Below, piece after piece: positions 4,772 through 63,703 of a stretch of 64,000 bases of DNA (positions within the stretch are counted from its first letter, which is position 1; each line of letters opens with the position of its first letter). The DNA is from Ophelia neglecta (Eukaryota). The DNA lies in assembly GCA_965285935.1 (NCBI GenBank), contig OZ260662.1, forward strand, positions 77,128,001-77,192,000, written 5' to 3'. The notes under the pieces are model-generated. The model made no database searches. It saw only the letters and a list, made by a program, of their open reading frames with translations, and had not been told where the DNA came from. The translations under genes and the position numbers were made by a program.

Positions 4772-7700
4772 CTGTAAAAAATATTATCAAAATCAATGCT
4801 TAGATATGATTAACAAAATATTAATGAAATGCTGTTTTTAATTCTAGTTCAATAATTGACATTGGTATGTATATATATCTATATATAATTCTTACCTGAA
4901 TGCAGGTTGCAGCCTCATGTTCCCTCTGTCTTCGTTTGCTGTCTCTCAGATACATGACCGTTTTCTTTGCCCTGTGACATCTCCAGTTGGTCTGAATTAT
5001 GAGAGCCGCAGCGTCTTGTCTTCTTCCTTTGACTTCAGTCAGGTAGGTTCGGAATGCTCTTTGAATTACAATGGCTGCTTCTTGCCTGACCTGATAATAT
5101 GAATAAATCTAGTCATTTGGGTATCAACACTAATCCCTCAACATGGAACACAAGTAAACAATTAGAATATCAATGAAATAGGATTACACTCAGATACATT
5201 GATATTTGCCCAGTCCCATTGTAAACACTACACACCAGAAACATACATGAAATATCAGTCAACTTGAACAATAAAAGTCAAGATTTACTATATATTTCAC
5301 CATGTATTGTTCACACAATATATCATTACTTAGTAACGCTAGAAAGTGATTTCCTATGCAAAGTAACAATATGTTAGGACAAATTATAAACGAAACTTTT
5401 GAAAAAAGGAAATTTGAACAAATTTCATAATTGTGAAAATTTCCTGCTTGCACAAATGTTTTTCTTTAAAGTTCATGTTATAATTATTTTAGTACCTGTT
5501 TGTCTCTGATGCGTTTACGGAGTTGATAATGTCTCCAGGCCGACTGTATGACACGGGCGGCCCTGGTCTCCTGCCTGATGTCCAGCAGGCGAGCACACAG
5601 GTAGGACACATAGGTGATCACCACCTTCTCATCTGGGATGGTGTTAGACATATCAGCTGACTTCAACATCACCGGGATACCCCCGATCTCAGATACCTAC
5701 ATCAAAACCAGGCGATATTTAATCAAATAACCACAAGTTGCTTATTTTTTTTCAAAATATATTGATTTCTATTCAGTATCACAACCAGTTTTGTACCTGA
5801 AAATTAAAGCTCATACCTTTTCGTAGAGAAGTTTGAAATTCTTCTTCTCATTTTCCAGTAACTTTCCATAGTCTGTTGGCCTGCCTGTTGCTGAAAATGA
5901 TACATTAAATTAACTTTAAAGTGGGAAATGTTGAAGAAGATGTTTATTATTTCAGAAGGCCAAGGTAATACGAAAAAAAGACTAATGATATAGACTCTAG
6001 CAGCATGCCATTATTTGACACAAGTGAATTATTTTGCATTAAACTGAGTGTAGTGCTTCCTCCATTAAAACTCTCTTAAACATGATAGGACATACTTGGA
6101 CTGTAAGCCTGTGTCCACAGCCCATCAAAGCTGTCGTCTGCAGACTCATCAGAGTTGATTTCATGGCTACCTTCAATGGTGAGAGTAGTATGTGTGTGGA
6201 TAGCCTCTAGAGGGAGCAGTGAGGGGTGGTAATGGTGTACCAGAAAGCACAGGGCTCGGCCATCGGAGAAGGACACAGTGAAATTTTCAACCTAAAACAA
6301 AACAATGATTACCATGTTCAAGATTGCATAAATAAAAACAGTTTAATACTGACATAAATTTCTGTACAAAGAAGCACAATACATTTCAAGGCAAATAAAT
6401 TAAATTTATATAATTATTATTTGTACAGAGCTCTATCAATATCTGGTTTCCCTTATAGGTTGTATTTTAGCACTGTGCTGAACAGCAATGAATTAGGCCA
6501 AATAAAATTGTAAACTTAAGCCAATTTGGCTAAAATATCTTTTGTAGCTTTGCTTAAACAATGTAGGAAAGGTAAGTTTTAAAAATTAAATTAGAGAAAT
6601 ACTAATGTCAGATTTATTTGGCTAAATTGCTAACATTTGTCTTAGCTAAAAATCAAAATTCTTCTGGACTCTTAAGGGGAACCCAGTATATAGAACAAGA
6701 AAAAAAAAAATAACATAATCTCATCCATACCTCACAGATACCAAAAATGTGGATTATTTTAAAACATAGTGTAAAATTAATTTTAAATAACATCAAAGTT
6801 GTAAAACAAGAATGCCCACCTTCATACTATAGTAGGCACACACAGCTCTGCACCACTTGAGTAAGAGACTCAGTCTGGGACTAGTGAAGTACATATCTGG
6901 GGCTAGAGACTCTCTCTTGCCTCGGGGCAAGCCTAATGAAATATAAACAAATGGAACAGTCAAGTATAGGCTTTGTACACCATCCACCAAAAACAAACAA
7001 GCAAATACAAACTGATGCAATAAATGTAAACAGTTTAGATCTGCCTAGTAGTGTAAATGAAGTCTGATAATAGCAGTCCTAAGCCTTATGTGAAAAAAGT
7101 GGTTGACCATCAAATGACTGATTAATGGTTAAAAACCTACCTAGATCACCATCCATCTCATTCAGAATAGCTTCAAGCCTGGCCTTGACTTTGAAGTTAT
7201 TGGTGAGGAACTGGATTTCTTCTTTTAGTTGTTCCTCATTCAGAAGCAGATCAATTTGAAAGTTGAAGATGATTTTCCACAGCAGGTGTAGTGTTTTCTC
7301 TCGGTGTCCATCTACGATGTCCCGAGAGGATAACTTGCCTCCTGGTATAAACAAACAAATACTTGAATGGACAAATAGGAAAGTAATAATTATCAAAACT
7401 CAATGTGCATACTCTTTTTGATTTTCCCAGCAGGAATCAGGAAAAAAGCAAACCATCATTTTTTCCAATATCAAAGATTTTTCAACATTCTAAGTCATTT
7501 TCATGGTTGGAATAGAATTGGTATAAACTTCTAAGGATCAGGAATTATTAGGGAATTATCTAAATATTGATCTGTTAATACTGTTCTAAGGAAATATTTT
7601 ATCTCAGGTTGTTATGATTACTTGATGGGAAAAAAATCAAACAGTATATGCCTATATAATGTTACCAGATGCATGTTTCTTAAAGAATTTGGTGGAATTG

Positions 7701-10700
7701 TCAAAGATATACAAATAGCACCTAATCAAAATCAATCATTGATGCAGTGTCTGGATAAAAAATTTACCTCATGACTTGGAACACAAGGAAAAATGTAATC
7801 TCTTAATGAATACCATATTAAAATTTTACAGTATATGTACATACAAAATTAGACAAATTATGCTCACAGTTAATTTGTGATGCCCTGTTTGCACATATAG
7901 TTTGATCAAATCATTGACAAATATGTATGTACAATATTTATATCACCAGAACGAAATGTCCATCAAGAAAATAGGAAATAATAAAAAATTCACATGGTTC
8001 AATAGGTTTGATTGTATGATGATGTAGATCATTTGGATCACACTAGAATTGTTCTGAGAACACCAATAATCTGACCTGAGAACACTAATGGTCTGACCTG
8101 AGAACACCAATGGTCTGACCTGAGAATACCAATGGTCTGACCTGAGAGCATCAATAGTCTGACCTGGTGACCAAGGGTTTGAAGTGTCATTAACAAAGCC
8201 AACCAGGGCACAGTTAACATGGTGTTGTAATACAAAAACACAACTGCATTAGATGTGATGGTGTGACATACATGTAAATTGAACAGGAAAGAGATCCAAT
8301 TTTCCCATGTTTTATTGATCTGTCCATAACTTCAACCAAATATATTCTTGAAGATAAGTACTGTAGCCATGAATTGAGGCATCTATTTTGTAATGATTAT
8401 TGGATTCTGTTACCTTAACTACTGTTAAATGACATACTGTGTACCCTTCCTCTTTTTAAACTTAATGTTACTAGCATTGATTGTATGAGTATCACTCTCT
8501 TGGAGGATGTGGTGGCCCTGAAGAGGACCAGGGAGTGTACTCCCAGTAGACAGGGTGTGAGGCTGCCAGGGGTCTCAGCCAAACAGCCAGGGATACTGGG
8601 AGAGGAAGGTCTGGTGGGAGGTGGTGATCTTCTCCATCAATCTGTCCACTTGGCCAGCCAACTTGAGGAGTGAGGAGGAGTGCACACAGCGTTCACTCTC
8701 GTACACCTGAAGCTTGTTCCACACAGGGTAGTAGTGCTTGAGTTCACCATTAAATATCACATCTTCTAGTTTCTTGTTGAGATGATGACACTTTTGGTAG
8801 AGCAGACGCACAAGGCTGAAAAGCCTCTGGATCTTTTTGACAATGGCTCCAGCTTGTCGTGTGGTGTTCAGTATATACTGAGCTGAGAGCTGAGACTTGG
8901 GACTCAGCCTCTCTGTCTGCAGACTGCTGTACACATCAGACAGCTCATCCAGGAAGACGGACACTGTGTCCCAAGGGTTGTCAGTAGGCATGCTCATGGT
9001 GAGTAGAGATCTGATAACAGGAGTGTGACAAGTTGGGAAGCCAAAATGTGTTTGCCCTACCTCTCAAAACCAGCTCACCAAGAAAGGTCTGTCTGATGCC
9101 TCTGATTATTAACCAACCAATCAGTAAAGAGCAGCAGTTTTACACCTTTTCTGATGGATACCAATTAGCAACAAGCAATGGTTGTGGCACCTTCACATCA
9201 AACAGATCATAGAGCCACAAAAATTGGGGTTTGTTTACATCAAAGGACTTCAAGAATGCCCAACTAAATGAAGGAAGCCACTATATTTTGTGGGAAGAGT
9301 TTCAAATTGGAGCAACTAAGGAGAATCTGCTGAACATGATGGCAAGGGGTCCCGGAGTAGATTTCAAGTACTGGAATACTCTCAATGATGAAAATGGTCA
9401 TCTGGACTGCCCTCCCTGGAGTCGCTGATCAGCACTCCTCAAGGAGGGCCCAGAGATTGATATTATGCCAGAAGAAATGCCTGAATCATTCAACCATGAT
9501 GGAACTTAAACCCAAACATAACTAGATGCATTTAAAATGATCTTAAATAAAGAACAGGCGTCTGATTATTATTATTTGATATTTACAAATAAATATTCAT
9601 AAATCACACTTTTAACATCAAAGGCATTTCTTTAGTTCCAACCCATCTTTGATTAGGACATAATGTTTATATCATGTGAACAAGTATGATGGAATTTCCA
9701 TGGATTACAAACAGCATCAAGAAAGGTGTAAAATATATATCACAGTTTTTTTCACATAAGATGATTTATTAAAAAGCATTTAATCACATCAAAGACCAGG
9801 AGGGTGTGAAAATCGATGGATTACAAACAGTCTCAAGAAGGGTGTGTATTACACATCACAGTTTTTTCACACATGATGATTCAATAAAGGCAACAAAACA
9901 CATCAAAGGCCAGGAAAGAGTGAAAAGTCGTGAATCACTATTAAACATAATTTATTGAATAGGTTGTGTAGCCAGGAAACTGTCATATGAAAGTTGCTAT
10001 TTATTACTTTGGTATTCCAACCCAGTCACAGGGGCTGGAAATGATTGATTTCAGTTATTAGGAATAGTAAAGAAACACTGAGTTTTTTTTATTCAACTTG
10101 AGATCATACTTTATGAAAATAAATGCCAAGCTTTTTCGACATGTAATAAAATCTTCAACCTTGCAGATATAAGTTTACTAAAAAAACTTAATAGGGGTCC
10201 AAATGTGGTTAATATAATGCTGTTCAAATTTGTACATCATGGGTAGATAATGCATGTCGCTTAATTACCTAACTTTATAGCAGAATGAACAAAAATAATA
10301 AAATATTTATGGTCAAGATATTTAATGAAATTAATTCATAACCTGAACAGATGAAGGCAAACAGGATTTTGGGTTTAAAGAACAGAAAGTTTGTCTAACA
10401 TAAGGCACGAAGTTTGGAAAATCATGACAATAAAACACCCTGGAACTGTTACTTCATGAACTAGGCAAACATGTCTGAATTATCCTCAACTAGTATTTAT
10501 AACATTTCTAAGCAGAATAATTTTATTTATACCAGCCAGGTTGTCAAACTATTCATAATTAATGTTGATGAGTACCTTTGATACATGTGAATTGAAAATG
10601 AAGGACAATCAATTAATAAGATTCCCATTTATACTGATCTGTCCATAACTTTTAAGATATTACAGAGAATATGTACCATTGCCATGAATGCAGGAATCTA

Positions 10701-13700
10701 CTTTGTGATGATTATTGGATTCTATTATGTTAATTACTGGCAACAGGATTGTTTTTAATTTATCTACCCTTGAAAACGTGTTTTTTTGCAGTTCTCATGA
10801 ATGCCATGTTCTAAATTTCAAAGGTTAATTATCACAGAACTATGTTAATAAATGTGAGTTAATTTAGATAAATTGGTTTCATAATTTGAATTTGGCCATC
10901 ACAGACTCTAATTACTCTTTGTAATCTTATTGTTGCTAGCATTGATTGTATGAGTAAGACCCTCTGGGAGGATGTGAGGGCCCTGAAGAGGACCAGGGAA
11001 TGTACACCCAGTAGACAGGGTGTGAGACTGCCAGGGGTCTCAGCCAAATAGCCAGGGATACTGGGAGACGAAGGTCTTGTGGGAGGTGGTGATCTTCTCC
11101 ATCAATCTGTCTACTTGGCCAGCCAACTTGAGGAGGGAGGAGGAGTGCACACAGCGTTCACTCTCATACACCTGAAGCTTGTTCCACACAGGGTAGTAGT
11201 GCTTGAGTTCACCATTAAATATCACATCTTCTAGTTTCTTGTTGAGATGACGACACTTCTGGTATAGCAGACGCACAAGGCTGAAAAGCCTCTGGATCTT
11301 TTTGACAATGGCTCCAGCTTGTCGAGTGGTGTTCAATATGTACTGAGCTGAGAGCTGAGACTTGGGACTCAGCCTCTCTGTCTGCAGACTGCTGTACACA
11401 TCAGATAGCTCATCCAGGAAGACGGACACTGTGTCCCAAGGGTTGTCAGTAGGCATGCTCATGGTGAGTAGAGATCTGGTAACAGGAGTGTGACAAGTTG
11501 GGAAGCCAAAATGTGTTTGCCCTACCTCTCAAAACCAGCTCACCAAGAAAGATCTGTCTGATGCCTCTGATTATTAATCAACCAATCAGTAAAGAGCAGC
11601 AGTTTTACACCATTCTGATGGATACCAATTAGCAACAAGCAATGGTTGTGGCACCTTCACATCAAACAGATCATAGAGCTACAAACATTGGGGTTTGTTT
11701 ACATCAAAGGACTTCAAGAATGCCCAACTAAATGAAGGAAGCCACTGGGAAGAGTTTCAAATTGGAGCAACTAAGGAGAATCTGCTGAACATGATGGCAA
11801 GGGGTCCCGGAGTAGATTTCAAGTACTGGAATACTCTCAATGATGAAAATGGTCATCTGGACTGCCCTCCCTGGAGTCGCTGATCAGCACTCCTCAAGGA
11901 GGGCCCAGAGATTGATATTATGCCAGAAGAAATGCCTGAATCATTCAACCATGATGGAACTTAAACCCAAACATAACTAGATGCATTTAAAATGATCTTA
12001 AATAAAGAACAGGCGTCTGATTATTATTATTTGATATTTACAAATAAATATTCATAAATCACACTTTTAACATCAAAGGCATTTCTTTAGTTCCAACCCA
12101 TCTTTGATTAGGACATAATGTTTATATCATGTGAACAAGTATGATGGAATTTCCATGGATTACAAACAGCATCAAGAAAGGTGTAAAATATACATCACAG
12201 TTTTTTTCACATCAGATGATTTATTAAAAAGCATTTAATCACATCAATGACCAGGAGGGTGTGAAAATCGATGGATTACAAACAGTCTCAAGAAGGGTGT
12301 GTAATACACATCACAGTTTTTTCACACATGATGATTCAATAAAGGCAACAAAACACATCAAAGGCCAGGAAAGAGTGAAAAGTTGTGAATCACTATTAAA
12401 CATAATTTATTGAATAGGTTGTGTAGCCAGGAAACTGTCATATGAAAGTTGCTATTTATTACTTTGGTATTCCAACCCAGTCACAGGGGCTGGAAATGAT
12501 TGATTTCAGTTATTAGGAAAAGTAAAGAAACACTGAGTTTTTTTTATTCAACTTGAGATCATACTTTATGAAAATAAATGCCAAGCTTTTTCGACATGTA
12601 ATAAAATCTTCAACCTTGCAGATATAAGTTTACTAAAAAAACTTAATAGGGGTCCAAATGTGGTTAATATAATGCTGTTCAGATTTGTACATCATAAGTA
12701 GATAATGCATGTCGCTTAATTATAACTTTATAGCAGAATGAACAAAAATAATAAAATATTTATGGTCAAGATATTTAATGAAATTAATTCATAACCTGAA
12801 CAAATGTAGGCAAACAGGATTTTGGGTTTAAAGAACAGAAAGTTTGTCTAACACAAGGCACAAAGTGTTGAAAAACATGACAATAAAACACCCTGGAACT
12901 GTTACTTCATGAACTCTACTAGGCAACATGTCTGAATTATCCTCAACTAGTATTTATAACATTTCTAAGCAGAATAATTATAATTATACCAGCCAGGTTG
13001 TCAAACTATTCATAATTAATGTTGGTGAGTACCTTTGATATATGTGAATTGAAAATGAAGGACAATCAATTAATAAGATTCTCATTTTTACTGATCTGTC
13101 CATAACTTTTAAGATATTACAGAGAATATGTACTATTGCCATGAATGCAGGAATCTACTTTGTGATGTTTATTGGATTCTATTATGTTAATTACTGGCAA
13201 CAGGATTGTTTTTAATTTATCTACCCTTGAAAAAGTTTTTTTTTTGCAGTTCTCATGAATGCCATGTTCTAAATTTCAAAGGTTAATTATCACAGAAGAA
13301 TGTTAATAAATGTGAGTTAATTTAGATAAATTGGTTTCATAATTTGAATTTGGCCATCACGGACTCTAATAACTCTTTGTAATCTTATTGTTGCTAGCAT
13401 TGATTGTATGAGTAAGACCCTCTGGGAGGATGTGAGGGCCCTGAAGAGGACCAGGGAGTGTACTCCCAGTAGACAAGGGTGTGAGACTGCCAGGGGTCTC
13501 AGCCAAACAGCCGGGGATACTGGGAGAGGAAGGTCTGGTGGGAGGTGGTGATCTTCTCCATCAATCTGTCCACTTGGCCGGCCAACTTGAGGAGGGAGGA
13601 GGAGTGCACACAGCGTTCACTCTCGTACACCTGAAGCTTGTTCCACACAGGGTAGTAGTGCTTGAGTTCACCATTAAATATCACATCTTCTAGTTTCTTG

Positions 13701-16700
13701 TTGAGATGATGGCATTTTTGGTAGAGCAGACGCACAAGGCTGAAAAGCCTGTGGATCTTTTTGACAATGGCTCCAGCTTGTCGAGTGGTGTTCAGTATAT
13801 ACTGAGCTGAGAGCTGAGACTTCGGACTCAGCCTCTCTGTCTGCAGACTGCTGTACACATCAGACAGCTCATCCAGGAAGACGGACACTGTGTCCCAAGG
13901 GTTGTCAGCAGGCATGCTCATGGTGAGTAGAGATCTGGTAACAAGAGTGTGACAAGTTGGTAAGCCAAAATGTGTTTGCCCTACCTCTCATAACCAGCTC
14001 ACCAAGAAAGATCTGTCTGATGCCTCTGATTATTAACCAACCAATCAGGAAAGAGCAGCATTATTACACCTTTCAGATGAATACCAATTGGCAGTAAGCA
14101 ATGGTGATGGCACCTTCACATCAAACAGATGATAGAGCCACAAACATTGTGGTTAGTTTTCATCAAAAGACTTCAAGAAGGCACAACTGATTTAGGGAAG
14201 CCACTTTTATTTTGTAGGAAGAGTTTCTAATTTAATCAACTGCTTGTAATTAGTCGAACCAAAGAGAATGTGCTAAACACGATGGCAACTGACTCATTGG
14301 GTAGAATTCAGGTAGCTGACTGCTCTCAGTAATAAAAATTGTCATCGTCCACACTTCATTTACTATTCTGCCATGTAAATAATAATAAAGAATATTCCAT
14401 TCTACTTTTAAGAGCATACTGATAAAATAGCCTCCAGAACAGAATGATGGCCACTATCAAATTAGGACTGAGGTGACAATTGACCCTAGTGTAGCTGACA
14501 AGTACTCCACAAGAAAGGCTTTTCTCAAGAGGTTCCATAAACTCCCAGAAAATTATATCATACGATCAATGCGATTCATGTTCATTCCTCAGTAACATTT
14601 AGTGATAAGGTATCCTTTCAATAGTCTTCCCAGTCAAATATTAACTTGTCCAATGCTTTAATATTCTTTTATTCTACTTTTATATATTATGCTCTAACAC
14701 AATGATCTGCCTATGTAATAAGCTAATTATTAATTTTTTAATATATGTAAGAAGTGGCTATGGGTTAGAAAATTAAAAAATACTTTTTCTGGTCTTCATA
14801 ATAGTTTAGATACATGCATGAACACTTTGTCTGATGTCTCCGACGTTAACTTAAATACTGGTCACCGGATTCTTTATTATATATCTACCCTTGAAAACGT
14901 GTTATAGACTACTTGTGAATGCCATGTTTTAAATTTTAAAGGTTAAATATTATAGAAGAATGTTAATAAATGTGAGTTTATTTAGAATAAATTGGTTTCA
15001 TAGATTGAATTTGGCCATCACAGACTTAATTCTTTCTAACCTCCCTATTTTAATATTAATGTTGCTAGCTATGATTGTATGAGTAAGACCCCCTTGGAGG
15101 ATGTGGTGGCCCTGAAGAGGACCAGGGAATGTACTCCCAGTAGACAGGGTGTGAGACTGCCAGGGGTCTCAGCCAAACAGCCGGGGATACTGGGAGAGGA
15201 AGGTCTGGTGGGAGGTGGTGATCTTCTCCATCAATCTGTCTACTTGGCCAGCCAACTTGAGGAGGGAGGAGGAGTGCACGCAGCGTTCACTCTCATACAC
15301 CTGAAGCTTATTCCACACAGGGTAGTAGTGCTTGAGTTCACCATTAAATATCACATCTTCTAGTTTCTTGTTGAGATGATGACACTTTTGGTAGAGCAGA
15401 CGCACAAGGCTAAAAAGCCTCTGGATCTTTTTGACAATGGTTCCAGCTTGTCGAGTGGTGTTCAGTATATACTGAGTTGAGAGCTGAGACTTGGGACTCA
15501 GCCTCTCTGTCTGCAGACTGCTGTACACATCAGACAGCTCATCCAGGAAGACGGACACTGTGTCCCAAGGGTTGTCAGCAGGCATGCTCATGGTGAGTAG
15601 AGATCTGGTAACAGGAGTGTGACAAGTTGGGAAGCCAAAATGTGTTTGCCCTACCTCTCAAAACCAGCTCACCAAGAAAGGTCTGTCTGATGCCTCTGAT
15701 TATTAACCAACCAATCAGGAAAGAGCAGCATTATTACACCTTTCAGATGAATACCAATTGGCAGTAAGCAATGGTGATGGCACCTTCACATCAAACAGAT
15801 GATAGAGCCACAAACATTGTGGTTTGTTTACATCAAAAAGGCACAACTGATTGAAGGAAGCCACTTTCATTTTGTGGGAAGATATTCAAATTGAAGCAAC
15901 TATGTGTCAACAGTCTAAGAGAAAATTTGCTGAACAAAATAGCAATTGACTTCTTGGTAGATTTCTAGTATTTGTCGCAGTATTACTCACAGTAAAGAAA
16001 TGGTCATCTTCCACATTTCTTTCATTATTCTGCTATTAAAATAAAAAAAGAATATTCCCTTCTACTGAGACAGCCAAACCAAAGACCTTGGCTAACTTAT
16101 GTTGAAGCAACTCAGCTCATACGAATGCTAGTGTTGAGCCTTCTTACACAAGTATCGTTAACTGCCAGGAAGCTGCAGGTGTTCAAAGCTACATACCTTC
16201 CTACTAAAAAGGAACTCTCAAATGTACAAACTTGTAAGATTATACTGAGATATAGCCTTGAGAACAGAGAATGATGGCCAATATCCCATTAGAACTGAGG
16301 TGGCTGTCCACCCTGGTGTAACTGAGCATCATATTTAATTCTGATGTTCTGATTCGAAATGAAATTAACCTCTCAATATTAATTTAAGCCATTTCCTGAT
16401 GCATTCTCAAAAAGAGCATCAATAAAGTGCTCTAGTGTAACTTTTCTATTTTGACAAAAGGAATACCTGAACCAATCAAACACCATGTAATTCAAACCAA
16501 AACATAACTGAATGCATTTAAAATCATTCTTATAGAGAAACAGGACATTTTGATAATTATTTTTAGATATTTACAAATTAATAAATGTGCAAGTCACACT
16601 TTTGACATCAAAGGCAGTTCAAAAGTTCAGCCACATCTTTGATTAGGACATAATGTTTATAACCTGTGAACAATTGTAATGGAATTTCCATGGATTACTA

Positions 16701-19700
16701 ACAGTCTCAAGAAGGGTGTGAAATACACATCACGGTTTTTTATCACAACTGATGATTCATTTAAAGGAACTGAATCACATCAAAGACCAGTAAGTGTGAA
16801 AACTGGTGACTCACTATTAAACATTATTAATTGAATTGGATGGGCGGTTAAGAAACTGTCATATGAAATTTGTTACCACTTATGGGTTCCAACACAATCC
16901 CAGGAACTAGAAATTATTGAACTAACTTACAAAGAAAAGTGAATAAATGCTGAGTTTTGGATTAAACTTGAGACATTGTTTGAGGCATATATTTGGGTTT
17001 AAAGAAAAGAAAGTTGGTCTAAAACATGAAAAAACAGGACAATTAAAAATTGGGATAATTTCCTCAATTTCTTCCAAAATGGCAGAAGAAACATATTTTT
17101 TCTAGAACAGAAAAAAACCTTTTTTCCTTGGAAAAAATTGCCTGTTTAAGAAAATGCCAATTCTGATTGGGAAATGTTGGCAATAGTTTCAAAGAAGCAA
17201 AACTCCATCTGGAGGTCAATGAAACCTTCTTGATAAGTAAATAATGGTTAGGGAAACCTGACAGAATATATGTGTTTTGAAGCGATGACCAGGGATCTGC
17301 AGGTCCAATTCCTGCTTACTGAACATTACGCCACTCATAGTAGCATATGGACAAATCAAATAGCTTCATGCCTAAGGGACCCAGTGTGAATTGGGGGCTT
17401 AAAGTTTCGAACAAATCTGGTTCATCTATTTGCATGAGAATTTCTGTCTAATATGTAGGTGTTGCTGAAAGAAAAAACAAGTGGCAATATATATTGCCAG
17501 GTTGTGAAAACATGCTTAAATTAATGTTGGTGAGTACCTTTGATGTTTTCCACATCTATGCCCCTGACTGACATAGCCTTGAAGGCAATGCCTACATTGT
17601 GGATCTTCTGTAGACGGCTGATGGCAGGAACCCTCATCTCCTTGGACAACATGTAGCAGTTGGTCAACATCTCTATGACACGACTGTAAGGTAAAGAATT
17701 GATCCAAATATGACCAGAGTATCAGAGAATACTTTAAGACCAAAATATTTAGTATGCTCTTTATTTCACACATTATTAGAGTGTAAGCACTAAAGTTGTT
17801 CCAGATCCATGACACTACAGTACAAGGCTGACAAATACAAGGGGCTTAATGCTAAATATTTTCATACATTACTTAAATGAGACACTGCTGGTCAGTAAAA
17901 TAAATTGTACTCCTGAATAGCAAATTTACTCCTAAAATATGGCAATGTCTGTGAAATGACAGAGGATTTAGAAGCAACAAAGCTTAAAGATATGACTGTG
18001 GAATCTTGTTAACTTGCCAGTTAATTTTGGCAGATTATTGTAGGCGTCATATTGTGACACTGTTCTATTATTTGTATTATTTGGTCAGCTATTTTTTTGC
18101 TATTTTGTTTTTCGCTTTTCTACTACATTTTAGTGCATTCTGCTTCAAATGACACCCATAACAATTGTCCTTGAACTCAGTAACAGGTGTCATCATAAAA
18201 ATAAATCAGCTGTAAGCCAATCTAATTCTATCTGGACACCGGAGCATGCAAACCTACGTGAGTTTCATGCCGTCTCGGAGATCGGTGGCCAGGTTAGTGA
18301 CTGCGTAATTGTACTCCTCCAGAGCCGTCTGAACATGGCTGACATGATATCCTAGGTAACCAAGGTGTTTGGTTAGGTCCCCCTCGCCACTCAAATAGTC
18401 TCGAGAAAATGTCAGCAGTAGATCTTTACTGGCCTAGAAGTACAATGCATCATTATGAAATATGGATATAAAATAAATATCAAGAGTTTGCACTGGCTAT
18501 TTAAAAAATTGGGTGCAAAAAGACTTTTCATGAGAAAGTGGGGCCCAGTGCTTACAGGGACAAATATTAGGGGTCCCAATTAATCTACAAAAGAGACTTG
18601 GATGGCATGAATGCAAACAACGGATATACATCTGGGCATGAAAATATCTTTTAATATTGCATCAGGGCAAAATAAAAGATAATGGAGAACAGTGATATGG
18701 AAATATGACAAAACAAAATTGTTGATTTTTTTGGTAATGTATTTTTGCATGTTATTCTCCATGCATGATTGCTAAAACCAATATACAAGAGTGTTAAATT
18801 CGGCCAGTAGATATGACAGCTACTCACCTTGTAGTCAGAGTCTATACAGAAGAGGCAGGGATCATGATCAATCAGACGACTTTTCTTGGCTTTGTCCAGG
18901 AATATCACCAGCAACAGGAACTTCTTGAGGATGAACTGGGCCAGGGCCTCGTCATAACCTGATCATAATGATTAATACTAACATCAAACAATAGTAGTAC
19001 ATTAGTAGTTGCAGGGATGAAGCTTGTAATAGGGTATCATGTACATATGAATGAGCATTATTTAGATTATTCTGTCTGATTAGCAGCCACCTTACATGTA
19101 TACTTTTGTGACCAGCTGTAAAGTGTATCATTATATCACTGATAATACTGTACATACCATCTCTGTAGAAGTGAGGGACTGTGGGGTGAGCATACTGTTC
19201 GGCTATGTCTGGGTTTCCCAAAAGTCGATGGACTATGAAGTGGGACAACCCATACACATCAGTGTTGGCCGCAACTGGTACAATCTCACCAAACACCACC
19301 TTAAAATCAGCGAAAAATTAATGAGACCAATGCAAAGATTTGGTTACACTTAAAATTGTCCTAGAGTACTGTTAAAGATGAAATTTTCGCAGAATTGGCA
19401 GCATTTATTTCCATGCAGACTATTTTGGCATTTATTGAAAGGTGCCCATATAAGACTTACAATGCAAGAAATTTTTGATTACTTAATGCCTGCGCATCCT
19501 AGCCAATCGTGAAAAAGTTAAAAAAAAATGTTATTTCATGTTTTCCTTTATTTGTGGAAAAAGTAATTAGAATATTAGTAAATTATTATTCGTAAATATT
19601 TCAGCTTACCTCTACACCGATTCGAAGCCATAGTGGGTTGTAAGACAGCAGCATATCCAAAATTGTTTGTTTAATGCCTGAAATAAATATAAAAAGGTCA

Positions 19701-36697: not shown

Positions 36698-36702
36698 ATA
36701 TA

Positions 36703-36743
<41 letters not shown>
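36698..36743. repeat. (TA)n microsatellite
   Basis: Directly visible. Confidence 0.9.
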
Positions 36744-52748: not shown

Positions 52749-53171
52749 ATGAGCATGCCTGCTGACAACCCTTGGGACACAGTGTCCGTCTTCCTGGATG
52801 AGCTGTCTGATGTGTACAGCAGTCTGCAGACAGAGAGGCTGAGTCCCAAGTCTCAGCTCTCAGCTCAGTATATACTGAACACCACTCGACAAGCTGGAGC
52901 CATTGTCAAAAAGATCCAGAGGCTTTTCAGCCTTGTGCGTCTGCTATACCAGAAGTGTCGTCATCTCAACAAGAAACTGGAAGATGTGATATTTAACGGT
53001 GAACTCAAGCACTACTACCCTGTGTGGAACAAGCTTCAGGTGTATGAGAGTGAACGCTGTGTGCACTCCTCCTCCCTCCTCAAGTTGGCTGGCCAAGTAG
53101 ACAGATTGATGGAGAAGATCACCACCTCCCACCAGACCTTCCTCTCCCAGTATCCCCGGCTGTTTGGCTGA
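52749..53171 (+). CDS. Uncharacterised 140-aa protein, array 2 copy A
   Basis: Intact 423-bp ORF. Confidence 0.75.
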   Translation: MSMPADNPWDTVSVFLDELSDVYSSLQTERLSPKSQLSAQYILNTTRQAGAIVKKIQRLFSLVRLLYQKCRHLNKKLEDVIFNGELKHYYPVWNKLQVYESERCVHSSSLLKLAGQVDRLMEKITTSHQTFLSQYPRLFG

Positions 53172-53217
53172 GACCCCTGGCAGTCTCACATCCATGTCTT
53201 ATGGGTGTACATTCACT

Positions 53218-53252
53218 GGTCCTCTTCAGGACCATCACATCCTCCAAGAGAG
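53218..53252 (+). terminator. Histone-type 3' stem-loop plus downstream element (copy A)
   Basis: GGTCCTCTTCAGGACC (53218-53233), ATCAC ATCCTC, CAAGAGAG (53245-53252). Confidence 0.75.
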
Positions 53253-54850
53253 TGATACTCATACAATCAATGCTAGCAACATTGAGAAACCAATTGATTC
53301 TAAATTAACTCTTGTCTATTATCATTCTTCTGTAAATGATAATCCTTAAAATTTGAAACATGACATTAATGATCACTGGAAAACAGGTTTCCAAATGTAG
53401 ATAGATGATAGATAACCCCTTTACCAGCATTTAATGTAATACAATACAACTATCACCATGTGTCCAAATTAAAGGCTAAGCAATTTTTTTCATAACCATT
53501 GTTCTCAGGCTTAATTTACATTTCTTTGCAACTCAAATCAATAATTTCCAGATCCTGTGATTGGGGTGGAATGCCAAAGTGGCAACAACTATCATATGAC
53601 AGTTTCTTGACAACATAACCCATTCAATATATTACGTTTAATTGTTATTCACAACTTTTCACACCTTCCTGGTCTTTGATGTGATTCAATGCCTTAAATA
53701 AATCATCAGATGTGAAAAAAAAAACCATGATGTATATATCACACCCTTCTTGTGACTGTTAGTAATCCATGGAAATTCCAATACAATTGTTCTCAGGATA
53801 TAAACATTATGTCCTAATCAAAGATGTGGCTGAACTTCAGAACTGCCTTTGATGTTAAAAGTGTGATTTATGACTATTTATTTGTAAATATCAAATAATA
53901 ATAATCAAATGTCCTGTTCCTTTATTTTCTAAGTCCATTCTTAAATGCATTTGGTTATGTTTGGGTTTGAGTTGTATTGTGGTTGAACGGTTTAGGCATT
54001 TCATCTGGCATAATATCACTCAATGGGCCTTTCTTGGGGAGAGCTGGTCAGCTACTCTAGAGTGGATGGTCACCTCAGTACTAAGGGGATAGTGGCCATC
54101 ATTCTCTGTTCTGGGGGCTAATTTTATAACTATACTCTTAAAAGTTTGTACATATGAGAGTTCCCTTTTTAGTAGGACGTCACATCTTTGAATACCTGCA
54201 GCTTGCTGGCAGTTAACAATGCCAACTACCAAGGATAATCACTTGAAATGACAACTAGTATATATAGTAGCTGAGTTGCTTATGGATAAGTTGGTGAAAC
54301 TCATGGCAAGGGTTTCCCAGTTAGCCATGGTGTTTGGCTTGGCAGACTCAGTAAAATAGAATATTTTCTCTTTAATATTATTTAAAAGGCAAAATAAAGA
54401 AATGAAATGTGGAAAATGAATATACTATTACAGCGAGTAGTCCAGTACTTGAAATCTACTCAACGAGCCCATTGCCAACATGCTCAGCAGATTCTCCTTG
54501 GTTAGACTATTCAACTATTCACACTCAGTTGCTTCAATCTGAAACTTTTACCACAGAATATAGAGTCTTGTGGCTTCCTTCAATCAATTGTGCCTTCTTG
54601 AAGTCCTTTGATGTAAACAAACCACAATGTTTGTGGCTCTATTATGTTTGAAGTTAAGTTGCCACAAACATTGCTTACTGCTAATTGGTATCCATCAGAA
54701 AGGTGTAAAAGTGCTGCTCTTTCCTGATTGGTTGGTTAATAATCAGAGGCATCAGACAGACCTTTCTTGGTGAGCTGGTTTTGAGAGGTAGGGCAAACAC
54801 ATTTTGGCTTCCCAACTTGTCACACTCCTGTTACCAGATCTCTACTCATC

Positions 54851-55273
54851 ATGAGCATGCCTGCTGACAACCCTTGGGACACAGTGTCCGTCTTCCTGGA
54901 TGAGCTGTCTGATGTGTACAACAGTCTGCAGACAGAGAGGCTGAGTCCCAAGTCTCAGCTCTCAGCTCAGTATATACTGAACACCACTCGACAAGCTGGA
55001 ACCATTGTCAAAAAGATCCAGAGGCTTTTCAGCCTTGTGCGTCTGCTATACCAGAAGTGTCGTCATCTCAACAAGCAACTGGAAGATGTGATATTTAACG
55101 GTGAACTCAAGCACTACTACCCTGTGTGGAACAAGCTTCAGGTGTACGAGAGTGAACGCTGCGTGCACTCCTCCTCCCTTCTCAAATTGGCTGGCCAAGT
55201 AGACAGATTGATGGAGAAGATCACCACCTCCCACCAGACCTTCCTCTCCCAGTATCCCCGGCTGTTTGGCTGA
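54851..55273 (+). CDS. Uncharacterised 140-aa protein, array 2 copy B
   Basis: Intact 423-bp ORF. Confidence 0.75.
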   Translation: MSMPADNPWDTVSVFLDELSDVYNSLQTERLSPKSQLSAQYILNTTRQAGTIVKKIQRLFSLVRLLYQKCRHLNKQLEDVIFNGELKHYYPVWNKLQVYESERCVHSSSLLKLAGQVDRLMEKITTSHQTFLSQYPRLFG

Positions 55274-55319
55274 GACCCCTGGCAGTCTCACATCCATGTC
55301 TTATGGGTGTACATTCACT

Positions 55320-55354
55320 GGTCCTCTTCAGGACCATCACATCCTCCAAGAGAG
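55320..55354 (+). terminator. Histone-type 3' stem-loop plus downstream element (copy B)
   Basis: Identical to copy A. Confidence 0.75.
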
Positions 55355-56927
55355 TGATACTCATACAATCAATGCTAGCAACATTGAGAAACCAATTGAT
55401 TCTAAATTAACTCTTGTCTATTATCATTCTTCTGTAAATGATAATCCTTAAAATATGAAACATGACATTAATGATCACTGGAAAATAGGTTTCCAAATGT
55501 AGATAGATGATAGATAACCCCTTATCAGCATTTAATGTAATACAATACAACTATCACCATGTGTCCAAATTAAAGGCTAAGCAATTTTTTTCATAAACAT
55601 TGTTCTCAGGCTTAATTTACATTTCTTTGCAACTCAAATCAATAATTTCCAGATCCTGTGATTGGGATGGAATGCCAAAGTGGCAACAACTATCATATGA
55701 CAGTTTCTTGACAACATAACCCATTCAATATATTATGTTTAATTGTTATTCACAACTTGGTCTTTGATGTGATTCAATGCCTTAAATAAATCATCAGATG
55801 TGAAAAAAACCATGATGTATATATCACACCCTTCTTGTGACTGTTAGTAATCTATGGAAATTCCAATACAATTGTTCTCAGGATATAAACATTATGCCCT
55901 AATCAAAGATGTGGCTGAACTTCCGAACTGCCTTTGAGGTTAAAAGTGTGATTTATGACTATTTCTTTGTAAATATCAAATAATAATAATCAAATATCCT
56001 GTTCCTTTATTTTCTAAGTCCATTTTTAAATGCATTCAGTTATGTTTGGGTTTGAGTTCGATTGTGGTTGAACGGTTTAGGCATTTCATCTGGCATAATA
56101 TCACTCAATGGGCCTTTCTAGTTGAGAGCTGGTCAGCTACTCTAAGAGTGGATGGTCACCTCAGTACTAAGGGGATAGTGGCCATCATTCTCTGTTCTGG
56201 GGGCTAATTTTATCACTGTTTTTAAAAAGTTTGTATATTTGAGAGTTCCCTTTTTAGTAGGACGTCACATCTTTGAATACCTGCAGCTTCCTTGCAGTTA
56301 ACAATGCCAACTACCAAGGATAATCACTTGAGATGATTACTAGTATATATAGTAGCTGAGTTGCTTACAGATAAGTTGGCAAAACTCATCACAAGGGTTT
56401 CCCAATTAGCCATGTTGTTAGGCTTGGCTGACTCAGTAGAAGAGAGTATTCTCTGTTTAATATTATTTAAAAGGCAAAATAAAGAAATGAAATGTGGAAA
56501 ATGACCATTTCATTACAGCGAGTAGTCCAGTACTTGAAATCTACCCAACGAGTCCATTGCCATCATGTTCAGCAGATTCTCCTTGGTTAGACTATTCACA
56601 CTCAGTTGCTTCAATTTGAAACTCTTCCCACAGAATAAAGAGTCTTGTGGCTTCCTTCAATCAATTGTGCCTTCTTGAAGTCCTTTGATGTAAACAAACC
56701 ACAATGTTTGTGGCTCTATTATGTTTGAAGTTAAGTTGCCACAAACATTGCTTACTGCTAATTGGTATCCATCAGAAAGGTGTAAAAGTGCTGCTCTTTC
56801 CTGATTGGTTGGTTAATAATCAGAGGCATCAGACAGACCTTTCTTGGTGAGCTGGTTTTGAGAGGTAGGGCAAACACATTTTGGCTTCCCAACTTGTCAC
56901 ACTCCTGTTACCAGATCTCTACTCATC

Positions 56928-57350
56928 ATGAGCATGCCTGCTGACAACCCTTGGGACACAGTGTCCATCTTCCTGGATGAGCTGTCTGATGTGTACAACA
57001 GTCTGCAGACAGAGAGGCTGAGTCCCAAGTCTCAGCTCTCAGCTCAGTATATACTGAACACCACTCGACAAGCTGGAACCATTGTCAAAAAGATCCAGAG
57101 GCTTTTCAGCCTTGTGCGTCTGCTATACCAGAAGTGTCGTCATCTCAACAAGCAACTGGAAGATGTGATATTTAACGGTGAACTCAAGCACTACTACCCT
57201 GTGTGGAACAAGCTTCAGGTGTACGAGAGTGAACGCTGCGTGCACTCCTCCTCCCTTCTCAAATTGGCTGGCCAAGTAGACAGATTGATGGAGAAGATCA
57301 CCACCTCCCACCAGACCTTCCTCTCCCAGTATCCCCGGCTGTTTGGCTGA
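56928..57350 (+). CDS. Uncharacterised 140-aa protein, array 2 copy C
   Basis: Intact 423-bp ORF. Confidence 0.75.
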   Translation: MSMPADNPWDTVSIFLDELSDVYNSLQTERLSPKSQLSAQYILNTTRQAGTIVKKIQRLFSLVRLLYQKCRHLNKQLEDVIFNGELKHYYPVWNKLQVYESERCVHSSSLLKLAGQVDRLMEKITTSHQTFLSQYPRLFG

Positions 57351-57396
57351 GACCCCTGGCAGTCTCACATCCATGTCTTATGGGTGTACATTCACT

Positions 57397-57431
57397 GGTC
57401 CTCTTCAGGACCATCACATCCTCCAAGAGAG
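57397..57431 (+). terminator. Histone-type 3' stem-loop plus downstream element (copy C)
   Basis: Identical to copy A. Confidence 0.75.
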
Positions 57432-59004
57432 TGATACTCATACAATCAATGCTAGCAACATTGAGAAACCAATTGATTCTAAATTAACTCTTGTCTATTA
57501 TCATTCTTCTGTAAATGATAATCCTTAAAATATGAAACATGACATTAATGATCACTGGAAAATAGGTTTCCAAATGTAGATAGATGATAGATAACCCCTT
57601 ATCAGCATTTAATGTAATACAATACAACTATCACCATGTGTCCAAATTAAAGGCTAAGCAATTTTTTTCATAAACATTGTTCTCAGGCTTAATTTACATT
57701 TCTTTGCAACTCAAATCAATAATTTCCAGATCCTGTGATTGGGATGGAATGCCAAAGTGGCAACAACTATCATATGACAGTTTCTTGACAACATAACCCA
57801 TTCAATATATTATGTTTAATTGTTATTCACAACTTGGTCTTTGATGTGATTCAATGCCTTAAATAAATCATCAGATGTGAAAAAAACCATGATGTATATA
57901 TCACACCCTTCTTGTGACTGTTAGTAATCTATGGAAATTCCAATACAATTGTTCTCAGGATATAAACATTATGCCCTAATCAAAGATGTGGCTGAACTTC
58001 CGAACTGCCTTTGAGGTTAAAAGTGTGATTTATGACTATTTCTTTGTAAATATCAAATAATAATAATCAAATATCCTGTTCCTTTATTTTCTAAGTCCAT
58101 TTTTAAATGCATTCAGTTATGTTTGGGTTTGAGTTCGATTGTGGTTGAACGGTTTAGGCATTTCATCTGGCATAATATCACTCAATGGGCCTTTCTAGTT
58201 GAGAGCTGGTCAGCTACTCTAAGAGTGGATGGTCACCTCAGTACTAAGGGGATAGTGGCCATCATTCTCTGTTCTGGGGGCTAATTTTATCACTGTTTTT
58301 AAAAAGTTTGTATATTTGAGAGTTCCCTTTTTAGTAGGACGTCACATCTTTGAATACCTGCAGCTTCCTTGCAGTTAACAATGCCAACTACCAAGGATAA
58401 TCACTTGAGATGATTACTAGTATATATAGTAGCTGAGTTGCTTACAGATAAGTTGGCAAAACTCATCACAAGGGTTTCCCAATTAGCCATGTTGTTAGGC
58501 TTGGCTAACTCAGTAGAAGAGAGTATTCTCTGTTTAATATTATTTAAAAGGCAAAATAAAGAAATGAAATGTGGAAAATGACCATTTCATTACAGCGAGT
58601 AGTCCAGTACTTGAAATCTACCCAACGAGTCCATTGCCATCATGTTCAGCAGATTCTCCTTGGTTAGACTATTCACACTCAGTTGCTTCAATTTGAAACT
58701 CTTCCCACAGAATATAGAGTCTTGTGGCTTCCTTCAATCAATTGTGCCTTCTTGAAGTCCTTTGATGTAAACAAACCACAATGTTTGTGGCTCTATTATG
58801 TTTGAAGTTAAGTTGCCACAAACATTGCTTACTGCTAATTGGTATCCATCAGAAAGGTGTAAAAGTGCTGCTCTTTCCTGATTGGTTGGTTAATAATCAG
58901 AGGCATCAGACAGACCTTTCTTGGTGAGCTGGTTTTGAGAGGTAGGGCAAACACATTTTGGCTTCCCAACTTGTCACACTCCTGTTACCAGATCTCTACT
59001 CATC

Positions 59005-59427
59005 ATGAGCATGCCTGCTGACAACCCTTGGGACACAGTGTCCGTCTTCCTGGATGAGCTGTCTGATGTGTACAACAGTCTGCAGACAGAGAGGCTGAGT
59101 CCCAAGTCTCAGCTCTCAGCTCAGTATATACTGAACACCACTCGACAAGCTGGAACCATTGTCAAAAAGATCCAGAGGCTTTTCAGCCTTGTGCGTCTGC
59201 TATACCAGAAGTGTCGTCATCTCAACAAGCAACTGGAAGATGTGATATTTAACGGTGAACTCAAGCACTACTACCCTGTGTGGAACAAGCTTCAGGTGTA
59301 CGAGAGTGAACGCTGCGTGCACTCCTCCTCCCTTCTCAAATTGGCTGGCCAAGTAGACAGATTGATGGAGAAGATCACCACCTCCCACCAGACCTTCCTC
59401 TCCCAGTATCCCCGGCTGTTTGGCTGA
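59005..59427 (+). CDS. Uncharacterised 140-aa protein, array 2 copy D
   Basis: Intact 423-bp ORF. Confidence 0.75.
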   Translation: MSMPADNPWDTVSVFLDELSDVYNSLQTERLSPKSQLSAQYILNTTRQAGTIVKKIQRLFSLVRLLYQKCRHLNKQLEDVIFNGELKHYYPVWNKLQVYESERCVHSSSLLKLAGQVDRLMEKITTSHQTFLSQYPRLFG

Positions 59428-59473
59428 GACCCCTGGCAGTCTCACATCCATGTCTTATGGGTGTACATTCACT

Positions 59474-59508
59474 GGTCCTCTTCAGGACCATCACATCCTC
59501 CAAGAGAG
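59474..59508 (+). terminator. Histone-type 3' stem-loop plus downstream element (copy D)
   Basis: Identical to copy A. Confidence 0.75.
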
Positions 59509-61082
59509 TGATACTCATACAATCAATGCTAGCAACATTGAGAAACCAATTGATTCTAAATTAACTCTTGTCTATTATCATTCTTCTGTAAATGATAATC
59601 CTTAAAATATGAAACATGACATTAATGATCACTGGAAAACAGGTTTCCAAATGTAGATAGATGATAGATAACCCCTTTACCAGCATTTAATGTAATACAA
59701 TACAACTATCACCATGTGTCCAAATTAAAGGCTAAGCAATTTTTTTCATAAACATTGTTCTCAGGCTTAATTTACATTTCTTTGCAACTCAAATCAATAA
59801 TTTCCAGATCCTGTGATTGGGATGGAATGCCAAAGTGGCAACAACTATCATATGACAGTTTCTTGACAACATAACCCATTCAATATATTATGTTTAATTG
59901 TTATTCACAACTTGGTCTTTGATGTGATTCAATGCCTTAAATAAATCATCAGATGTGAAAAAAACCATGATGTATATATCACACCCTTCTTGTGACTGTT
60001 AGTAATCCATGGAAATTCCAATACAATTGTTCTCAGGATATAAACATTATGTCCTAATCAAAGATGTGGCTGAACTTCAAAACTGCCTTTGATGTTAAAA
60101 GTGTGATTTATGACTATTTATTTGTAAATATCAAATAATAATAATCAAATGTCCTGTTCCTTTATTTTCTAAGTCCATTCTTAAATGCATTTGGTTATGT
60201 TTGGGTTTGAGTTGTATTGTGGTTGAACGGTTTAGGCATTTCATCTGGCATAATATCACTCAATGGGCCTTTCTTGGGGAGAGCTGGTCAGCTACTCTAG
60301 AGTGGATGGTCACCTCAGTACTAAGGGGATAGTGGCCATCATTCTCTGTTCTGGGGGCTTATTTTATAACTATACTCTTAAAAGTTTGTACATATGAGAG
60401 TTCCCTTTTTAGTAGGAAGGTACAGCTTTGAATACCTGCAGCTTGCTGGCAGTTAACAATGCCAACTACCAAGGATAATCACTTGAAATGACAACTAGTA
60501 TATATAGTAGCTGAGTTGCTTATGGATAAGTTGGTGAAACTCATGGCAAGGGTTTCCCAGTTAGCCATGGTGTTTGGCTTGGCAGACTCAGTAAAATAGA
60601 ATATTTTCTCTTTAATATTATTTAAAAGGCAAAATAAAGAAATGAAATGTGGAAAATGAATATACTATTACAGCGAGTAGTCCAGTACTTGAAATCTACT
60701 CAACGAGCCCATTGCCAACATGCTCAGCAGATTCTCCTTGGTTAGACTATTCAACTATTCACACTCAGTTGCTTCGATCTGAAACTTTTACCACAGAATA
60801 TAGAGTCTTGTGGCTTCCTTCAATCAATTGTGCCTTCTTGAAGTCCTTTGATGTAAACAAACCACAATGTTTGTGGCTCTATTATGTTTGAAGTTAAGTT
60901 GCCACAAACATTGCTTACTGCTAATTGGTATCCATCAGAAAGGTGTAAAAGTGCTGCTCTTTCCTGATTGGTTGGTTAATAATCAGAGGCATCAGTCAGA
61001 AGTGAGCTGGTTTTGAGAGGTAGGGCAAACACATTTTGGCTTACCAACTTGTCACAATCCTGTTACCAGATCTCTACTCATC

Positions 61083-61505
61083 ATGAGCATGCCTGCTGAC
61101 AACCCTTGGGACACAGTGTCCGTCTTCCTGGATGAGCTGTCTGATGTGTACAACAGTCTGCAGACAGAGAGGCTGAGTCCCAAGTCTCAGCTCTCAGCTC
61201 AGTATATACTGAACACCACTCGACAAGCTGGAACCATTGTCAAAAAGATCCAGAGGCTTTTCAGCCTTGTGCGTCTGCTATACCAGAAGTGTCGTCATCT
61301 CAACAAGCAACTGGAAGATGTGATATTTAACGGTGAACTCAAGCACTACTACCCTGTGTGGAACAAGCTTCAGGTGTACGAGAGTGAACGCTGCGTGCAC
61401 TCCTCCTCCCTTCTCAAATTGGCTGGCCAAGTAGACAGATTGATGGAGAAGATCACCACCTCCCACCAGACCTTCCTCTCCCAGTATCCCCGGCTGTTTG
61501 GCTGA
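61083..61505 (+). CDS. Uncharacterised 140-aa protein, array 2 copy E
   Basis: Intact 423-bp ORF. Confidence 0.75.
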   Translation: MSMPADNPWDTVSVFLDELSDVYNSLQTERLSPKSQLSAQYILNTTRQAGTIVKKIQRLFSLVRLLYQKCRHLNKQLEDVIFNGELKHYYPVWNKLQVYESERCVHSSSLLKLAGQVDRLMEKITTSHQTFLSQYPRLFG

Positions 61506-61551
61506 GACCCCTGGCAGTCTCACATCCATGTCTTATGGGTGTACATTCACT

Positions 61552-61586
61552 GGTCCTCTTCAGGACCATCACATCCTCCAAGAGAG
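61552..61586 (+). terminator. Histone-type 3' stem-loop plus downstream element (copy E)
   Basis: Identical to copy A. Confidence 0.75.
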
Positions 61587-62019
61587 TGATACTCATACAA
61601 TCAATGCTAGCAACATTGAGAAACCAATTGATTCTAAATTAACTCTTGTCTATTATCATTCTTCTGTAAATGATAATCCTTAAAATATGAAACATGACAT
61701 TAATGATCACTGGAAAACAGGTTTCCAAATGTAGATAGATGATAGATAACCCCTTTACCAGCATTTAATGTAATACAATACAACTATCACCATGTGTCCA
61801 AATTAAAGGCTAAGCAATTTTTTTCATAAACATTGTTCTCAGGCTTAATTTACATTTCTTTGCAACTCAATAATTTCCAGATCCTGTGATTGGGATGGAA
61901 TGCCAAAGTGGCAACAACTATCATATGACAGTTTCTTGACAACATAACCCATTCAATATATTATGTTTAATTGTTATTCACAACTTTTCACACCTTCCTG
62001 GTCTTTGATGAGATTCAAT

Positions 62020-63045: not shown

Positions 63046-63199
63046 CAAAAGGTGTAAAAGTGCTGCTCTTTCCTGATTGGTTGGTTAATAATCAGAGGCA
63101 TCAGACAGACCTTTCTTCGTGAGCTGGTTACGAGAGGTAGGGCAAACACATTTTGGCTTCCCAACTTGTCACACTCCTGTTACCAGATCTCTACTCACC

Positions 63200-63622: not shown

Positions 63623-63668
63623 GACTCCTGGCAGTCTTACACCCATGTCTACTGGGTGTACATTCACT

Positions 63669-63703
63669 GGTCCTCTTCAGGACCATCACATCCTCCAAGA
63701 GAG
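63669..63703 (+). terminator. Histone-type 3' stem-loop plus downstream element (copy F)
   Basis: Identical to copy A. Confidence 0.75.

Follow-up and report, generated by a model that had tools for sequence, protein, structure and literature searches.

The 64,000-nucleotide stretch of DNA analyzed here (the window) carries on its minus strand an ASPM gene model with 19 exons and 3,522 codons inside the window, free of stops, whose exons match the Pfam ASH, CH and IQ families. Intron 12, counted from the model's ATG exon, probably lies inside the first CH-domain region and is exceptional in length, the remaining 17 introns in the window spanning only 107-1,082 nt. A sequence-only reading had described this intron as outsized and as holding four gene copies on the ASPM strand, each with a histone-type stem-loop; both descriptions hold, with 10,196 nt against 1,082 for the next longest intron and with the ORFs and hairpins of all four copies (A-D) located as follows.

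7342..17537, minus strand: ASPM intron 12, 10,196 nt, GT..AG, phase 1
15690..15725, minus strand: inverted CCAAT box and AT-rich element upstream of copy A, about 100-130 nt 5' of its ATG
15169..15591, minus strand: copy A, an intronless 140-aa ORF (from ORF reading) with a predicted three-helix protein (from structure prediction)
15108..15123, minus strand: copy A stem-loop, followed by a spacer, a purine block and an ACAATC block to about 15072
13499..13921, minus strand: copy B, 140 aa
13437..13452, minus strand: copy B stem-loop
11040..11462, minus strand: copy C, 140 aa
10979..10994, minus strand: copy C stem-loop
8575..8997, minus strand: copy D, 140 aa
8514..8529, minus strand: copy D stem-loop, the highest-scoring on the histone matrix of all family copies compared

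The coding regions of all four copies are unbroken, intronless 423-nt ORFs, and the 16-nt hairpins lie 45-46 nt past the stop codon, well within 100 nt of it. An inverted CCAAT box with an AT-rich element also stands 5' of copies B-D and is visible upstream of family members; this CCAAT-type element is conserved and may be the promoter of the nested copies. Copies in the window have dN/dS values of 0.08-0.22 and differ by 22 synonymous versus 11 non-synonymous variants (p=1.6e-7), and are thus under purifying selection. In the DNA contigs of one sample, the unique spacers and the intron ends are covered at about single-copy depth, positions 10010-11011 are nearly without coverage, and no contig spans the whole intron; the intronic copies have diverged from one another (dS 0.065-0.135), and a misassembled array is unlikely. 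ASPM itself is present once in the genome, and its exons 3' of the array are intact with an open frame.

The product is predicted to be a small helical-hairpin protein outside known families. Its modeled fold, a short helix followed by a long hairpin, is entirely helical (pLDDT 92), and the 140-aa protein has no match among histone Pfam families, which together argue that the nested copies are not replication-dependent histone genes. The subfamily has a modest link to a widespread hairpin family (hhalign probability 78%, E=1.7e-5). Med30 (PF11315) was considered as an identity and set aside, scoring 19-20 bits against a cut-off of 28.1 (E=0.001, model positions 12-120 of 147), and none of 82 members of the related hairpin family matches it; the predicted short helix and long hairpin are shared by Med30 and by generic helical hairpins (BAR, ESCRT-III/PspA, the ING N-terminus). 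The best structural match (VIA; Z 12.1, rmsd 3.0, 134 aligned residues) is tied with many unrelated helical bundles and is generic, while the ESM Atlas gave leads only, with best scores of 0.77 (140-aa protein) and 0.81 (related family). A PDB sequence search gave a best E of 0.19, and Foldseek returned nothing at E<=0.001 in the PDB for the related family.

Hairpins of copies A-D have a 6-bp stem with a GG..CC base and a U-A top pair, and a 4-nt loop with U at its third position. Those in the window fall below the gathering score of the Rfam Histone3 model (RF00032), which has no match there, and carry C at loop position 1, where 22 of 25 distinct hairpins have U; two other non-histone hairpins of the class exceed the Rfam cut-off (40.4 and 36.9 bits). 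Binding of the stem-loop binding protein (SLBP) to the hairpins of the intronic copies may be weak because of this C, one G-U pair and the lack of an A-rich 5' flank. In the covariation set the stem pairing is maintained at 100%, and 3 of the 6 pairs have changed on both sides; the set was selected with a pairing-aware pattern and so leans towards structure. Positions 18001-51000 of the window yielded no hairpin on either strand.

Of the regions scored, 14 of 14 histone and 23 of 24 non-histone ones have an ACAAT-type block 20-34 nt downstream of the stem. A matrix was derived from 14 histone downstream regions, with a 99.9th percentile of 5.9 for random sequence, and on it the intronic copies score 18.4, 10.7, 10.7 and 21.0; paralogues outside the intron score 14.9 (the 52-64 kb array of the window and the C7 locus) or 2.6-9.3 (C1 copies), and histone genes reach 18.6-29.1 on what is their own training set. 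The altered downstream variants reported earlier for copies 2-4, numbered from left to right, are present as described. Their interpretation as weakened processing inside ASPM does not survive the comparison, since the intronic copies match or beat most outside paralogues on the histone matrix; nor does the CTCAC tail in place of ACCAC point to weakening, tails other than ACCAC (ATCAC, TTCAC, CTTCA) being the rule outside ASPM. The genome has an SLBP gene. For U7 snRNA, Rfam gave seven weak matches, all under the cut-off, and three sequence patterns gave 15 versus 13, 35 versus 32 and 4 versus 7 matches in the genome versus the control; the best-looking candidate, L047, has no 3' hairpin.

The combined pattern of stem-loop and downstream block matches the genome 206 times, versus 0 for the reversed pattern, and is found 3' of histone genes and of non-histone families of the helical-hairpin, SGNH/GDSL and His-Cys endonuclease kinds. 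The 140-aa protein has 32 matches in the genome, and among the matches listed every full-length copy of its family, at 65-100% protein identity, is followed by the hairpin; in some paralogues the hairpin is lost or broken. Among homologues on public metagenome contigs, 20 of 31 have the hairpin, versus 10 of 9,300 shuffles, and 11 of 31 are without one within 200 nt; on one such public contig (L115) a family gene adjoins histone H3. These sequence patterns indicate that this animal has a large class of non-histone genes with a histone-type 3' signal, of which the ASPM copies are members and not an ASPM-specific invention. Our literature search found no description of non-histone genes with histone 3' ends.

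Several further features bear on how the array arose.

12992..13039, minus strand: duplicated end of ASPM exon 12 with its donor (GT at 13032), a tandem-duplication junction
10535..10582, minus strand: second duplicated ASPM donor (GT at 10575)
7895..17384, minus strand: segment matching the C7 locus (L011) in patches at 72-87%, presumably inserted or duplicated
14445..14560, plus strand: decayed opposite-strand paralogue remnant that has a pseudogene homologue at the C7 locus; its broken hairpin lies at about 14517-14536
52749..63684, plus strand: six more stem-loop-bearing copies, lying antisense within a WW-domain gene's intron

We propose that a gene-bearing DNA segment entered an ASPM intron of about 700 nt and was then tandem-duplicated inside it, capturing the ASPM donor site at the junctions. 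The intronic array would later have seeded the one 35 kb away, which likely derives from it because the same ASPM-donor junction recurs at 51726. Both the upstream and the downstream elements are kept, as they would not be in retrocopies, which argues for spread by DNA duplication. On a matrix from 18 ASPM introns only, the duplicated donors reach 5.4, much as the true donor does; a role as recursive splice sites was rejected, as their acceptor context scores -1.5 and -1.1 versus 2.7-12.0 in true acceptors.

Nesting of this kind is not limited to ASPM. A survey of 20 other loci found sense copies in host introns at six (plus one probable) and antisense copies only at two (plus one probable), so that same-strand nesting is common in this genome and sense copies are not depleted. 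In one host, a BTB gene, the expected frame across the array holds stops, and an exon may have been missed.

The reading we favor, with a probability of roughly 0.6, is that the copies are autonomous, intronless, multicopy non-histone genes. Each would be transcribed from its own promoter and its message cut by the SLBP/U7 pathway, giving no poly(A) tail, while the ASPM pre-mRNA would be spliced around all four. The host may escape cleavage if processing of the histone type is coupled to an intronless transcription unit of its own and combines poorly with splicing. Histone processing is termed 'incompatible with splicing' in one review (PMC2874999), and concentration of factors at histone loci is described as raising processing efficiency (PMC4896052).

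The sequence-only reading had also noted that the ASPM pre-mRNA contains four potential histone-type signals, and same-strand hairpins with downstream elements are indeed present, the RNA ends it predicted (15103, 13432, 10974 and 8509) lying 5 nt past each stem. Its proposal that these truncate ASPM, or release the nested messages from the ASPM promoter, is disfavored because ASPM is single-copy with intact downstream exons, each copy retains a conserved CCAAT-type box upstream, at least six other hosts also hold sense-nested copies, and a cleaved host intron gives RNA without its own cap. A milder version, in which a fraction of pre-mRNA is cut in intron 12 and S phase sees attenuated ASPM or a truncated product of ASH and a partial CH region, strikes us as unlikely. 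The four signals are of histone-like strength, cleavage in extracts is reported to need only the stem-loop and pairing of the histone downstream element (HDE) (PMC7026596), and nested genes are described as able to end host transcription prematurely (PMC3192792). Against such cutting stand the intact single ASPM gene, the lack of any depletion of sense copies among the nested loci (of the 20 surveyed), and the fact that the element which did decay in this intron is its one opposite-strand remnant.

It is similarly improbable that the genes are real but their hairpin, in this subfamily, is a decaying relic, with messages polyadenylated at a downstream AATAAA. This motif does lie 126, 264, 452 and 198 nt past the four intronic stems, so polyadenylation is possible, and the C at loop 1, the missing A-rich flank, the missed Rfam cut-off and the loss of the hairpin in some paralogues fit such decay. 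The hairpin nevertheless follows every full-length copy among the matches listed, the ACAAT block is kept, and the six outside copies at 52-64 kb have fully Watson-Crick stems, and the two of them that were checked lack AATAAA over 316 nt. Least probable of all is that a virus or mobile element took over histone-type ends and carries the class as its cargo, the ASPM array being a selfish insertion. SGNH/GDSL and His-Cys endonuclease are family kinds seen in mobile elements, and the class is dispersed and has expanded rapidly in tandem; against this, it has no relative in viral_contigs and no BFVD structural match at E<=0.001, no capsid or polymerase gene was recognized in the flank ORF lists as read by eye, and the copies are under purifying selection, with a family gene beside histone H3 on L115.

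Histone mRNAs are described as the only known eukaryotic mRNAs with a stem-loop end (PMC7026596), and a large non-histone clientele, if true, would change the purpose of SLBP/U7 in these invertebrates. A long shot is that in this animal, and likely in many molluscs and annelids, the SLBP/U7 pathway also serves a second program whose non-histone genes (helical-hairpin proteins, SGNH hydrolases and His-Cys nucleases) number well over a hundred and can colonize host introns on the same strand since no poly(A) signal is needed, and that the four ASPM signals may also cleave part of the host transcripts at times of U7 activity, tying S-phase histone processing to spindle-protein dose. Such genes would go unseen in poly(A)-selected transcriptomes, a possible reason for their missing annotation. 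One may speculate that, like histones, the product is provided when cells proliferate or in the early embryo. Sense-nested copies in ASPM and other single-copy hosts could serve as a natural experiment on whether cleavage by U7 depends on a dedicated promoter or takes place on whatever nascent RNA bears the signal.

The closest known system is that of the metazoan replication-dependent histone genes (RF00032, HDE, SLBP, U7 snRNP), which are likewise intronless, tandem and multicopy, and those of the same genome share with the nested copies the hairpin build, spacer, purine block and ACAAT block. Unlike them, the nested copies have a non-histone product and a hairpin with C at loop 1 and a G-U pair, below the Rfam cut-off, and are located in host-gene introns. 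With nested protein-coding genes at large, for which mammals are reported to show both orientations and only a slight opposite-strand bias (PMC11694760), they have in common an unusually long host intron, but the ASPM copies finish in a histone-type end rather than at an adjacent poly(A) signal, and they have expanded in tandem inside the intron.

The host gene, which we take to be ASPM from its ASH, CH and IQ domain order, was modelled by hand on the minus strand from 26916; within the window the model has 19 exons and a stop-free frame of 3,522 codons. The three domains were matched by Pfam in four of the seven exons tested, exon 13 has itself as its sole match in the genome, and the adjacent stretch (L021) holds further ASPM-like exons. 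GC instead of GT opens intron 3 of the model (25479). As the sequence-only reading had noted, one intron is unusually long, at 10,196 nt versus 107-1,082 nt for the other 17, and carries four copies on the host's strand. Each is an ORF of 140 aa with a 16-nt hairpin 45-46 nt past its stop codon.

Features of the window and its edge
17537-7342, minus strand: long ASPM intron
15169-15591, minus strand: copy A of the 140-aa gene
13499-13921, minus strand: copy B
11040-11462, minus strand: copy C
8575-8997, minus strand: copy D
31400-41400, plus strand: candidate exon fragments resembling those of genes for a copper transporter and a glutamate-cysteine ligase modifier subunit
52749-63622, plus strand: outer array, six additional copies, antisense within a WW-domain gene
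64013 onward (L020:13-64; G000:C2:77192013): orphan stem-loop with downstream element, 344 nt past the last copy's hairpin; a 3' UTR remnant without an ORF

The four-copy nested feature is real. In contigs from three runs of one sample, possibly the assembly's own source, the intron ends and unique spacers lie at about single-copy depth, and no contig spans the intron; coverage almost vanishes over 10010-11011 and stays close to single-copy in the twin of that segment, which hints weakly at variable copy number. The window copies are coding genes rather than filler, given their dN/dS of 0.08-0.22 (nine pairs computed; 0.33-0.51 against paralogues on contigs C7 and C1) and the excess of synonymous changes among pooled variants (22 versus 11 non-synonymous, p=1.6e-7). 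The protein is predicted by AlphaFold to form helices at residues 9-27, 33-83 and 86-134 (pLDDT 92); structure and family searches yield generic helical matches only, plus a sub-threshold match to Med30. Beyond this genome, the searches found three ENA proteins without a name, at 42-44% identity.

The protein has 32 genome matches over three contigs, and all full-length gene copies listed end in the hairpin, as do neighbours in the C1 clusters that are 20-26% identical. In these clusters (42.86-42.90 and 43.03-43.06 Mb; L012-L018) distant paralogues are paired on opposite strands in alternation, a 140-aa gene with one of 149 or 134 aa, and every gene has a hairpin; L017 also holds a BEL/Pao retrotransposon ORF. 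Genome-wide, a hairpin followed at 18-34 nt by a downstream block was counted 206 times, versus 0 for the reversed pattern. Upstream ORFs read among the matches listed (100 of 206) include H1, H2A, H2B, H3 and H4, together with many helical proteins of 94-156 aa, SGNH/GDSL-like proteins and one His-Cys endonuclease-like protein. One helical subfamily matches the genome 128 times and has 79 public homologues, including one named from an annelid; the closest Atlas cluster, at 0.81 no more than a lead, consists mostly of Mollusca. Profile comparison links this subfamily to the 140-aa one (probability 78%, E=1.7e-5).

Several arrangements within this class were also observed. At C7:95.695-95.797 Mb (L099), a helical gene of 105 aa, which encodes an acidic tail and has a histone-type end, is repeated in tandem about 50 times at 1.5-kb spacing. 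Intronless SGNH/GDSL-like genes of 210-241 aa carry canonical histone hairpins (L059, L060, L031, L152), with several copies on C3. The His-Cys box endonuclease-like gene (L093:2405-2785, 127 aa, PF05551, E=7.6e-9) has a histone-type end, and five more hairpins of its type occur at C8:3.5-4.0 Mb. L098 holds an H2A variant that has a hairpin and whose C-terminal tail is long, and L146 a family gene followed by two hairpins in tandem.

The 128-match family is encoded at 35 metagenome loci, of which two without a stop in the contig and two with <80 nt downstream were left out. A relaxed pattern finds a hairpin within 200 nt in 20 of 31 homologues, versus 10 of 9,300 shuffles; a strict pattern finds it in 13 of 33. 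In 31 aligned hairpins all 186 of 186 cells are paired and three of six pairs show two-sided changes, covariation support of limited independence since the set was picked with a pairing-aware pattern. On one public contig (L115:557-2606), histone H3 and a family gene share a strand and are separated by 1.2 kb.

Weakened processing inside the host, as initially suspected, is not borne out. On a matrix built from 14 histone downstream regions (random 99.9th percentile, 5.9), the intronic elements score 18.4, 10.7, 10.7 and 21.0, versus 14.9 for outer-array and C7 copies and 2.6 and 9.3 for C1 copies. These scores and the ACAAT-type block, present in 14/14 histone and 23/24 non-histone regions, argue against any weakening of the intronic copies compared with the rest of their family. 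The block, 26-34 nt past the stem in the 14 histone 3' regions read (L027-L034), may be what the 5' end of U7 pairs with in this species. Counting against histone-type processing, the hairpin of the 140-aa subfamily carries C at loop position 1, lacks an A-rich 5' flank and finds no Rfam match at gathering score (reached by two other non-histone members), and AATAAA follows each intronic stem by 126-452 nt. An SLBP gene is present; four sequence searches of the genome did not find U7 snRNA.

Between 17384 and 7895 the intron shows patchy 72-87% identity to the C7 locus (L011), a paralogous locus without an ASPM exon; the remaining ~700 nt is a normal intron size here. At two unit junctions the gene's 3' flank is fused to a copy of the exon-12 end and donor, a junction present in the outer array and absent from C7 and copy D. 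This distribution points to a probable history of tandem duplication within ASPM followed by export of one unit 35 kb away; either C7 or ASPM may have been the source of the segment that they share. Retention of upstream and downstream elements at all loci implies that copies probably arose by DNA-level duplication, not retroposition. Recursive splicing at the duplicated donors was ruled out by poor acceptor context.

Nesting extends to other hosts, as seen at 20 dispersed loci chosen by hand and read with ~10 kb of flank on either side; exons were predicted by an ASPM-trained model and flanking exons checked by Pfam and junction phase.

Hosts of nested copies in the survey
Vps26: sense, plus antisense pseudogene
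Peptidase C69: sense
Coiled-coil: sense, plus antisense
P450: sense, plus antisense
CHORD/CS: sense, hairpin degenerate
BTB (exon join across the copies predicted): sense, plus antisense
PIG-V: probable sense
Ankyrin gene: antisense only
Dihydropyrimidine-dehydrogenase-like gene: antisense only
LRR gene: probable antisense only

The other 10 of 20 loci were assigned no host.

The ASPM transcript could be cut at the nested signals, as the sequence-only reading had suggested, or the nested genes could be processed autonomously and the host spared. Because hosts can suffer interference from nested genes (PMC3192792), partial truncation may occur. Selection against host cleavage would predict depletion of sense copies, and the survey, a small and non-random sample, shows none. 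Work in mammals and flies supports autonomous processing, which would spare the host: histone 3' processing is described as "incompatible with splicing" (PMC2874999), and its efficiency is tied to local factor concentration at histone loci (PMC4896052). A literature search returned no paper on non-histone genes of this hairpin-ended class. What makes the array interesting is this gene class and the fact that it tolerates nesting on the host's strand, rather than any device particular to ASPM.
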